A stretch of DNA of 64,000 nt, taken from assembly GCF_058153355.1 (NCBI RefSeq), contig NZ_CM177019.1; one strand, written 5' to 3'. Below the pieces are notes generated by a model. The model made no database searches and was not told the DNA's origin. It worked only from the letters and a program-made list of their open reading frames with translations. The position numbers and the translations under genes are program-made. Positions 24,110 through 26,648 of this stretch are shown piece after piece. Numbering within the stretch: the first letter of the stretch is position 1; every line of letters begins with the position of its first letter.

Positions 24110-26648
24110 AGCTGGCTTGTTAGCGGTTCAGCGTCTGGTGCGAGTCTGGAAGTTGATAATGGTCAGATTACCAATATTAATACTGATGTTGCTTACGATG
24201 CCTACCTGGTTGGGTGGTATGGCACTGGAGTGCTTAATATTTTGGCTGGCGGTAATGCCTCCTTAACCACTATTACTACCAGCGTCATTGGTGGTAATGA
24301 GGACTCAGAGGGCACCGTTAACGTTTTGGGTGGCACCTGGCGATTGTATGATAGCGGAAATAATGCAAGGCCTTTAAATGTGGGTCAATCCGGAACGGGG
24401 ACGCTGAATATTAAACAGAAGGGTCATGTTGACGGAGGATATTTAAGGATAGGTTCTTCGACAGGAGGCGTCGGGACGGTCAATGTTGAAGGAGAGGACT
24501 CGGTTCTGACGACCGAATTATTCGAAATAGGGAGTTACGGTACAGGCTCATTAAATATTACGGATAAGGGTTACGTCACGAGTTCAATAGTCGCCATTGT
24601 AGGATATCAGGCGAACAGTAATGGTAAGGTTGTCGTTGAAAAGGGTGGCGAGTGGCTAATAAAAAATAATGATTCCTCAATTGAATTTCAAATTGGTAAT
24701 CAAGGGACGGGCGAAGCAACTATTCGCGATGGGGGGCTAATTACGGCTGAAAATACGATTATCGGTGGCAACCTCACCGGTATCGGAACCCTGAATGTGC
24801 AGGATCAAGACTCTGTCATCACGGTACGCAGACTCTATATATTACTTTTTTGGGCGATAAAGCAAGCGGTATCGGCACACTGAACCTGATGGATGCGACA
24901 TCATCGTTCGATACTGTAGGTATCAATGTCGGTAATTTTGGTAGCGGCATCGTAAATGTCAGTAATGGTGCCACCCTTAATTCAACGGGCTATGGATTTA
25001 TCGGAGGAAATGCCTCCGGTAAGGGGATAGTTAATATTTCAACGGATAGTCTCTGGAATTTAAAAACGTCATCTACTAACGCCCAATTGCTACAGGTCGG
25101 TGTATTAGGCACGGGTGAACTGAATATTACCACCGGAGGTATAGTTAAAGCGCGTGATACACAGATAGCTCTCAATGACAAAAGTAAGGGCGACGTGCGG
25201 GTAGATGGGCAGAACTCTCTTCTTGAAACATTCAATATGAACGTAGGGACGACTGGCACAGGTACGTTAACCCTGACGAATAACGGCACGCTGAATGTCG
25301 AAGGTGGAGAAGTTTACTTAGGTGTTTTTGAGCCTGCCGTAGGAACGCTAAACATTGGTGCTGCTCACGGTGAGGTGGCGGCAGATGCCGGGTTTATCAC
25401 CAATGCGACGAAAGTGGAGTTTGGTCTTGGCGAAGGCGTTTTTGTCTTTAATCATACCAATAACAGTGATGCCGGCTACCAGGTCGATATGCTGATTACG
25501 GGTGACGATAAAGACGGAAAAGTGATGCATGATGCAGGCCATACGGTGTTCAATGCAGGGAATACTTATAGCGGCAAAACGCTGGTCAATGACGGCCTCC
25601 TGACTATTGCGTCACATACGGCAGATGGGGTAACAGGCATGGGTTCGAGTGAAGTAACCATTGCAAGCCCCGGTACGCTCGACATTCTCGCATCAACGAA
25701 CAGCGCAGGAGATTACACGCTGACCAATGCACTCAAAGGCGATGGCTTGAATTCAATATGAACGTAGGGACGACTGGCACAGGTACGTTAACCCTGACGA
25801 ATAACGGCACGCTGAATGTCGAAGGTGGAGAAGTTTACTTAGGTGTTTTTGAGCCTGCCGTAGGAACGCTAAACATTGGTGCTGCTCACGGTGAGGTGGC
25901 GGCAGATGCCGGGTTTATCACCAATGCGACGAAAGTGGAGTTTGGTCTTGGCGAAGGCGTTTTTGTCTTTAATCATACCAATAACAGTGATGCCGGCTAC
26001 CAGGTCGATATGCTGATTACGGGTGACGATAAAGACGGAAAAGTGATGCATGATGCAGGCCATACGGTGTTCAATGCAGGGAATACTTATAGCGGCAAAA
26101 CGCTGGTCAATGACGGCCTCCTGACTATTGCGTCACATACGGCAGATGGGGTAACAGGCATGGGTTCGAGTGAAGTAACCATTGCAAGCCCCGGTACGCT
26201 CGACATTCTCGCATCAACGAACAGCGCAGGAGATTACACGCTGACCAATGCACTCAAAGGCGATGGCTTGATGCGAGTGCAGCTGTCATCCTTCGACAAA
26301 ATGTTTGGCTTTACCCATGCAACAGGAACTGAATTCGCCGGTGTTGCCCAACTGAAAGACAGTACCTTCACACTGGAACGCGACAACACCGCTGCGCTTA
26401 CTCACGCGATGCTTCAGTCTGACAGTGAAAATACCACATCGGTAAAAGTGGGAGAGCAATCCATTGGTGGACTAGCCATGAATGGCGGTACGCTCACTTT
26501 CGATACGGATATACCTGCTGCGACGCTTGCGGAGGGATATATCAGCGTCGATACACTGGTTGTCGGCGCGGGTGACTACACCTGGAAAGGCCGTAACTAT
26601 CAGGTAAACGGGACGGGCGACGTGCTTTCCGCAAGTGCAGATGCATGA
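24110..26648 (+). pseudogene. yneO: Decayed autotransporter/AIDA-like adhesin passenger region (yneO-like)
   Basis: Reading frame opens right after a stop with no start codon or signal peptide; repetitive GTGTLNI / GSGxxNV beta-helix passenger repeats across three ORF fragments; one frameshift near 24820, a second at the 521-bp duplication junction; no C-terminal beta-barrel. Confidence 0.7.
25230..26271 (+). repeat. Perfect tandem duplication, 2 x 521 bp, inside the adhesin pseudogene
   Basis: 25230-25750 and 25751-26271 encode identical peptides in both the sense and antisense six-frame ORFs; 521 is not a multiple of 3, so the junction shifts the frame. Confidence 0.9.

Follow-up and report, generated by a model that had tools for sequence, protein, structure and literature searches.

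The change of reading frame within the autotransporter passenger sequence downstream of lsrK is most probably (probability roughly 0.93) the scar of a 532-bp internal deletion in a non-functional relic of an ECSE_1600-family (YdeK-type, AIDA-I-like) type Va autotransporter gene, which occupies positions 24122–26627 of the window (the whole 64,000-nt stretch of DNA that was analyzed). A chromosomal gene of this family, normally located between lsrK and hipBA, would have decayed through four rearrangements. One of these, the 532-bp deletion, would have removed passenger residues 295–472 and shifted the downstream frame, leaving the old frame to end at 24881–24883. Either of the two terminal deletions alone would already abolish secretion or surface display. 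The internal lesion evidently has no function of its own and is best read as a mark of stepwise gene decay in one Escherichia lineage.

Downstream of lsrK lie three successive plus-strand open reading frames (ORFs), each in another frame, whose products resemble the β-helical passenger of an autotransporter. Minus-strand ORFs in the region are short and unremarkable. The genes and ORFs around the relic are arranged as follows.

lsrA, minus strand: gene of the window.
lsrR, plus strand: gene of the window.
22447–24039, plus strand: lsrK, the 5′ neighbor of the relic.
24230–24883, plus strand: relic ORF 1, 217 aa.
24850–25761, plus strand: relic ORF 2, 303 aa.
25758–26648, plus strand: relic ORF 3, 296 aa.

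Exact-sequence look-ups of the relic ORFs returned no record; a downstream 112-aa ORF was the sole one on record and gave the related contigs L004–L007. A promoter/terminator consensus scan of 23900–27000 identified no sigma-70-like promoter on the plus strand; its four promoter-like sites all lie on the minus strand, where 4.6 were expected in total. This count is no higher than chance and lends no support to expression of the relic. Elsewhere in the window, an ORF with IpaH-like LRRs is observed, and the same island (NEL-type E3 ligase and ankyrin protein) occurs in E. coli strains. The core DNA of the window shares only ∼97% identity with its best match among complete E. coli genomes. A Shigella origin, first suggested by the IpaH-like ORF, was dropped in view of these two findings.

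When 5,426 complete E. coli genomes were searched by megablast with 24040–27000, nearly all of them yielded the locus, annotated as ‘ECSE_1600 family autotransporter’ and positioned beside lsrK and hipA. The loci L001 and L002, chosen as first references, were dropped as C-terminally truncated pseudogenes and replaced with L010 (strain 24A16CRGN010), whose annotated-intact coding sequence (4393–9813, WP_103253606.1, 1806 aa) served as the main reference. At the protein level, the intact 1806-aa orthologue P0001 was used as the tblastn query; P0003 is also an intact 1806-aa form. Pairwise blastn comparisons with four loci (L001, L002, L010 and the E. coli K-12 locus L008) yielded an identical block structure each time, which reads against L010 as follows.

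21000–24122: block 1, L010 824–3951, 99.3% identity; 606 bp are then missing.
24122–24839: block 2, L010 4558–5275, 99.86% identity; the offset then jumps by 532 bp.
24839–25750: block 3, L010 5807–6718, 98.1% identity; the next block re-uses L010 6198–6718 (duplication).
25751–26627: block 4, L010 6198–7074, 98.2% identity; ∼4.37 kb are then missing.
26626–27624: block 5, L010 11440–12437, 98.9% identity.

The blocks are collinear with L010, and the noted frame change is therefore the second of four rearrangement junctions. The retained parts of the locus are assigned as follows.

24040–24122, plus strand: remnant of the lsrK–autotransporter intergenic region, cut off by the 5′ deletion with its junction at 24122 (blastn against L001, L002, L008 and L010).
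24122–24839, plus strand: passenger fragment A, codons 56–294, window frame 2; its end reads ...NVQDQDSVITVRRLY.
24841–25750, plus strand: passenger fragment B, codons 473–775, window frame 1; it begins ITFLGDKASGIGTLNL.
25751–26627, plus strand: passenger fragment C, codons 603–894, window frame 3; it stops at the 3′ deletion junction.
26626–26906, plus strand: 3′ end of hipA and downstream DNA, joined directly to autotransporter codon 894.

The tblastn alignments of P0001 reproduce this assignment. Residues 55–294 align with window positions 24119–24838 in frame 2 (97% identity, E 1e-130) and residues 473–778 with 24841–25758 in frame 1 (97.7%, E 1e-172), and residues 596–894 cover fragment C. 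On the NF011422 profile of the family, fragments A, B and C occupy positions 55–298, 473–776 and 602–894, respectively. None of the retained fragments contains an in-frame stop when read in its own frame. Fragment A differs from L010 by one synonymous change, and the retained fragments together (with the duplicated part counted twice) exhibit 26 synonymous versus 6 non-synonymous codon differences. Rearrangement accounts for all of the damage, and the inactivation is recent compared with the divergence of the alleles.

Two features define the internal deletion in the window.

24839–24840, plus strand: internal deletion junction; 532 bp (177 codons and 1 nt), with residues 295–472 lost.
24881–24883, plus strand: first stop (TGA) of the original frame past the junction, reading ...VRRLY-ILLFWAIKQAVSAH and then the stop.

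The sequence at the site (...CAG GAT CAA GAC TCT GTC ATC ACG GTA CGC AGA CTC TAT ATA TTA CTT TTT TGG...) translates in the original frame as ...QDQDSVITVRRLYILLFWAIKQAVSAH, followed by the stop, and in the neighboring frame as ...GTQTLYITFLGDKASGIGTLNLMDATSS.... The original frame is undisturbed through DSVITVRRLY (24809–24838). In the base-by-base view, the window matches the intact gene's upstream portion as far as ...GACTCTATA (24839) and its downstream portion from (A)TATTACTTTTTTGGGCGAT (24839/24840 onward), and the A at 24839, common to both sides, constitutes a microhomology of 1 nt. The intact orthologues read ...GIGTLNVQDQDSVITVRRLY(294)-NGYFGNGTVNISNN... and, 178 residues later, ...GGKFVSQN(472)-(473)ITFLGDKASGIGTLNLMDATSS...; in the intact 1806-aa forms, DSVITVRRLY(294) and (473)ITFLGDKASGIGTLNL stand 178 residues apart. 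The downstream part is out of frame because 532 equals 3 × 177 + 1.

The preliminary description had placed a frame change inside the passenger domain, and this is borne out by a switch from frame 2 to frame 1 with flanks that match residues 55–294 and 473–778 of P0001 far beyond chance. Its finer points need correction. The break was located at 24810–24830 but lies at 24839/24840, 9–10 nt beyond that interval; nor is it a one-nucleotide shift at ∼24820, as 532 bp lie between the flanks in all comparators. The two frames had been taken for adjacent segments of one protein, whereas residues 295–472 intervene in WP_103253606.1, P0001, P0003 and P0053. The repeat pattern was said to continue only through a frameshift, but the intact DSVIT-VR-RLY requires no shift at 24820, and the supposed repeat segment GTQTLY results from reading the VRRLY codons in frame 1 and is found in none of seven orthologues.

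The apparent continuity of the protein repeat can be traced to the architecture of the passenger. The TIGR04393 model (T5SS/PEP-CTERM-associated repeat) matches fragment A with 92 bits and fragment B with 64 bits against a cutoff of 23, and internal repeat matches are also present in the tblastn search with P0001. In the intact protein, the motif [DYN]SV[IL]T is present at just three places (aa 181, 285 and 390, ∼105 aa apart) and is followed each time by x-x-(x)-L-[FY/G]-x-G-x-x-G-x-G-x-[LVM]-N-I, such that DSVIT-VR-RLY-NGYFGNG parallels DSVLT-TE-LFE-IGSYGTG. The strict motif DSV[IL]T-x-x-L[FY]I has no match in P0001. The left deletion endpoint lies 20 residues past GIGTLNV and the right endpoint 17 residues past GVGNLNI; both are thus ∼17–20 residues beyond the G-x-G-x-L-N motif of a β-helix coil. 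The fusion joins near-equivalent positions of two β-helix coils, and the protein repeat therefore seemed unbroken across the junction.

A direct repeat with ∼532-bp spacing was sought at the deletion endpoints in the intact gene, and none was found. Repeat-mediated homologous deletion was rejected on this ground. Because the endpoints share a single nucleotide of microhomology and no direct repeat, illegitimate recombination or slippage is favored over homologous recombination between passenger repeats. The likeliest mechanism is thus an illegitimate recombination event (homology-independent or at a microhomology) or replication slippage.

The other three rearrangements flank or follow the internal junction.

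24122: 5′ deletion junction; 606 bp (L010 3952–4557), 1-nt microhomology.
25230–26271, plus strand: tandem duplication, copies 25230–25750 and 25751–26271, 521 bp with 0 mismatches.
26626–26627: 3′ deletion junction; ∼4.37 kb, 2-nt microhomology (TT).

The 5′ deletion removed 441 bp of upstream sequence and codons 1–55, including the ESPR signal peptide (PF13018, aa 1–47 of the intact protein). The duplication junction displays no microhomology, and a second frame change ensues because 521 bp amounts to 173 codons and 2 nt. The 3′ deletion fuses codon 894 to the last ∼177 nt of hipA and took the remaining passenger, the AC_1/pertactin autochaperone (aa 1332–1452), the β-barrel (aa 1525–1784), hipB and most of hipA; by blastn, 26626–26906 corresponds to 13234–13514 of the K-12 locus, which lies within hipA (12088–13410) and past its end. 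The start and the β-barrel that had been described as missing are indeed gone, the former (upstream region, ATG and ESPR signal peptide) with the 606-bp deletion and the latter with the deletion from codon 894 into hipA. The suggestion of multi-step decay is likewise upheld by four separate junctions and by further, different deletions in sister assemblies.

The distribution of the junction was examined using probes. With a 121-nt junction probe, 3,867 complete E. coli genomes matched in both halves, though as two separate pieces; among the 30 matches listed, the pieces together span 652–654 bp (121 plus ∼532). A 50-nt probe (25 + 25 nt), of which each 25-nt half alone is too short to seed megablast, matched 0 of 5,426 complete E. 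coli genomes, and the exact 30-nt junction sequence is absent from the GTDB species representatives (one genome per species). Residues 295–472 are present in seven of seven full-length or near-full-length orthologues, including the in-frame variants of 1608–1709 aa and P0053, an 84%-identical homologue from ‘Enterobacteriaceae bacterium G50’. Because all seven orthologues carry the segment and the probe halves are split in 3,867 genomes, the event is interpreted as a deletion in the lineage of the window and not an insertion elsewhere.

The identical 50-nt junction is observed in L004 (SRR8656992) and L005 (SRR28786219), two independent short-read assemblies whose lsr genes match those of the window at 99.97% identity. 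The internal junction is evidently real and lineage-specific, its support coming indirectly from related assemblies that could belong to one and the same clone. L005 has the 5′, internal and 3′ junctions in common with the window, and L004 has the internal and 3′ ones; neither carries the duplication junction. L004 carries a further deletion (23043–24521) that takes the 3′ half of lsrK, and L005 is without 26665–26859. The contig L006 is 100% identical to the window and starts within duplication copy 2, exactly 30 nt short of its end, a break that would be expected if a k = 31 assembly graph branches there. These assemblies partly order the four events: since L004 and L005 carry deletion junctions but not the duplication, the 521-bp duplication appears to be the youngest. 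By all indications, decay is still proceeding independently in close relatives.

Several other explanations were weighed against the deletion. A single-nucleotide indel at ∼24820 between adjacent passenger parts would account for the frame change, given that both frames are open and overlap from ∼24750 to 24883, where a shift at any point would join them, and that 532 mod 3 is 1, which gives the same net frame effect as a 1-nt deletion. However, the DNA alignment with the intact genes runs without a gap as far as 24839 and picks up 532 bp later, GTQTLY, an out-of-frame reading of VRRLY codons, occurs in 0 of 7 orthologues, and the separation of the two segments by 178 residues in intact proteins already refutes this account, to which next to no probability is assigned. 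Just as little probability is given to a regulated or tolerated site, through homopolymer phase variation, programmed ribosomal frameshifting or a functional shortened allele. A T6 run (24846–24851) does lie just past the junction, and many length variants of the family are annotated as intact (1608, 1672, 1703 and 1709 aa), but the run is identical in intact genes, the deletion is out of frame, and a permissive Rfam search (E ≤ 1, both strands of 23900–27400) found no RNA family or element. Moreover, frameshifting could not give a secreted product from a gene without a start codon, signal peptide, autochaperone and β-barrel.

An assembly artefact, namely a mis-join or collapse in the repetitive passenger region, is given a very small probability. 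The passenger is repetitive at the protein level and the adjacent exact 521-bp tandem duplication marks the region as hard to assemble, yet with just 1 nt in common and no shared DNA repeat, the endpoints offer nothing to collapse on. The junction was also assembled independently from SRR8656992 and SRR28786219; because it recurs in the contigs of these two other sequencing runs, it is not considered an artefact on present evidence. The opposite polarity, in which the short form came first and other E. coli gained the 532 bp by insertion or repeat expansion, draws on the capacity of passenger repeats to expand and on the fact that two sequences alone do not give the direction of an indel. This polarity is exceedingly improbable: at least 3,867 genomes contain the segment, as do all intact proteins, the non-E. 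coli P0053 among them; the short form is known from a single near-clonal sequence set and, as 532 is not a multiple of 3, could not encode a continuous protein. There is a slim chance of a broader significance, whereby the family's length variants (annotated as intact, ∼1,500–1,806 aa) and the four homology-independent rearrangements would reflect an unusually high rate of illegitimate recombination in passenger DNA that in effect serves size or antigenic diversification, with the out-of-frame allele as a failed by-product and not a case of neutral decay, or whereby the relic ORFs would be expressed via lsrK read-through and have a cytoplasmic role.

The appropriate annotation of the locus is a single pseudogene, a relic of an ECSE_1600-family autotransporter with four rearrangement scars, rather than separate ORFs or a simple frameshift. 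The four junctions, above all the 50-nt sequence at 24839/24840, are handy clonal markers for the lineage, and together with the differing extra deletions in sister assemblies they provide a small worked example of ongoing stepwise adhesin gene loss. The feature is an ordinary pseudogene scar whose significance is slight beyond correct annotation, and the novelty of the 532-bp deletion allele is trivial, amounting to its absence from the reference set.

The closest known system is the intact ECSE_1600 protein of E. coli SE11 (NF011422; for example, WP_103253606.1, P0001 and P0003), with which the window shares the lsrK–autotransporter–hipBA position and 97–99.9% identity of its fragments at the DNA or protein level. 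Orthology is indicated by both sequence and synteny, with blastn blocks of 94–99.9% identity to L001, L002, L003, L008 and L010 and with lsrK and the hipA remnant on the flanks. Compared with the intact form, the window copy is without codons 1–55, 295–472 and 895–1806 and carries the 521-bp duplication. Its fragments score 505.6, 652.3 and 642.6 bits separately on the 1806-position NF011422 profile, below the cutoff of 2335 bits, whereas P0001 scores 4156.5 bits; judged by these scores, the window sequence is derived from an NF011422 member but is not an intact member. Nor is it a simple frameshift pseudogene with a 1–2-nt indel, its flanks being 532 bp (178 residues) apart in intact orthologues. 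Internal passenger deletions also occur in the family length variants P0009 (1672 aa), P0061 from Shigella boydii (1608 aa), P0016 (1709 aa) and P0012 (1703 aa). Unlike the out-of-frame deletion of the window, those of the variants are in frame and elsewhere in the passenger, leaving the signal peptide and barrel intact and residues 295–472 retained.

The intact family shares an ESPR signal peptide, a β-helical passenger, an AC_1/pertactin autochaperone and a PF03797 barrel with the AIDA-I/Ag43-type adhesins (type Va). Its C-terminal 500 aa match the AIDA-I model (E 6e-105), but the family is distinct from AIDA-I because the model score is 352 bits against a cutoff of 1200 bits. Among these type Va traits, the window copy retains the β-helical repeat passenger (TIGR04393 in fragments A and B). 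A signal peptide is absent, with no ESPR detected in the window fragments by Pfam, as are the barrel (PF03797/TIGR01414) and the autochaperone (PF18883/PF03212), both of which are located at aa 1332–1806 of the intact protein. Unlike AIDA-I and Ag43, the window copy is wholly unable to work as an autotransporter. No demonstrated function of ECSE_1600 was found in the literature searched.

Pseudogenization of this gene is already well known and recurrent in E. coli. The SE11 genome paper (PMC2608844) gives ECSE_1600 (1806 aa) as intact in SE11 and HS, as truncated in MG1655, E24377A and O157 Sakai and as missing from B2 strains. In RefSeq, the K-12 and O145 RM9872 copies are annotated as frameshifted pseudogenes. 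The K-12 copy (‘ECSE_1600 family autotransporter, frameshifted’; old names ydeK/ydeU/yneO) is like the window copy a pseudogenized allele at the same locus, and one database entry bears the name ‘putative lipoprotein YdeK’. The two differ in the form of the damage: the K-12 copy has the full 5.4-kb length with a frameshift, an intact hipBA and the 532-bp segment kept, whereas in the window copy the damage was done by four large rearrangements, and hipB is gone along with most of hipA.

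The decayed autotransporter gene of the ECSE_1600 family, which lies between lsrK and a hipA remnant, is bounded by two deletion junctions and contains one duplication.

Window 24122: 5' deletion junction of the relic, 606 bp lost.
Window 26626-26627: 3' deletion junction of the relic, ~4.37 kb lost.
Window 25230-26271: exact 521-bp tandem duplication within the relic, copies differing at 0 positions.

The 606-bp 5' deletion took out the upstream region together with the ATG and ESPR signal peptide. At the other end, the ~4.37 kb deletion joined autotransporter codon 894 to the final ~177 nt of hipA. 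Because this deletion fuses codon 894 into the end of hipA, the hipBA toxin–antitoxin module is also lost from the window. The two copies of the 521-bp duplication meet at 25750|25751 without microhomology. The duplication is missing from the near-identical short-read contigs L004 (SRR8656992) and L005 (SRR28786219). A further contig, L006, which is 100% identical to the window, breaks 30 nt short of the end of copy 2, and this position of the break suggests that the duplication is present in the L006 sample.

Further deletions distinguish these close relatives. L004 exhibits an extra deletion of ~1.5 kb (L004 5539-6174, corresponding to window 23043-24521), which takes the initial 400 bp of the autotransporter relic and the 3' half of lsrK, leaving 211 of 530 aa; decay in this contig therefore reaches the AI-2 kinase gene. 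A 195-bp stretch 3' of the hipA remnant (window 26665-26859) is observed in the window and L004 and is missing from L005 (at L005 7946), and its absence is one more small deletion polymorphism inside the lineage.

Two open reading frames lie on the lsr side of the relic.

Window 13651-14859, minus strand: 402-aa ORF, flanked by the diguanylate cyclase gene and the lsr operon.
Window 19630-21252, minus strand: mechanically called lsrA ORF, 540 aa, GTG start.

The stretch of the 402-aa ORF is annotated in E. coli genomes as 'RNA-guided endonuclease InsQ/TnpB family protein' or transposase, a link drawn from the annotation of the matches alone. The lsrA ORF is ~29 codons longer than the annotated E. 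coli lsrA (1,536 bp), and its true start is thus probably internal. For lsrA in the Logan contigs, gene callers give 540 aa too.

Among 5,426 complete E. coli genomes, the best match to the conserved chromosomal DNA at window 8000-20000 (uxaB, diguanylate cyclase and the lsr operon) reaches only 97.1% identity, whereas window 21000-24839 is 99.3-99.9% identical to E. coli 24A16CRGN010, a strain whose autotransporter is annotated as intact. A divergent Escherichia lineage with a mosaic locus is the probable source, and we consider that this lineage may be cryptic clade I. Window 26600-33000 is covered to at least 80% in only one of the 5,426 genomes.

Two adjoining genes form a small island, bordered by the hipA remnant and, from 33993, by a type 1-like fimbrial operon.

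Window 28610-29812, minus strand: 400-aa LPX-type leucine-rich-repeat (LRR) ORF with a KTSKTSKTSK run.
Window 30945-32909, plus strand: 654-aa ankyrin-repeat protein (Ank_2, E 5e-13).

The co-occurrence of ankyrin and LRR proteins suggests that they are candidate secreted effectors. In Pfam, LRRs were the only matches of the 400-aa ORF, and a NEL domain was not found. The L004 version of the protein has 417 aa, and LRR copy number thus differs among close relatives. The 24A16CRGN010 homologue (508 aa) is annotated as 'NEL-type E3 ubiquitin ligase domain-containing protein', and compared with it, the window gene is shorter by ~303 bp, or ~5 LRR units.
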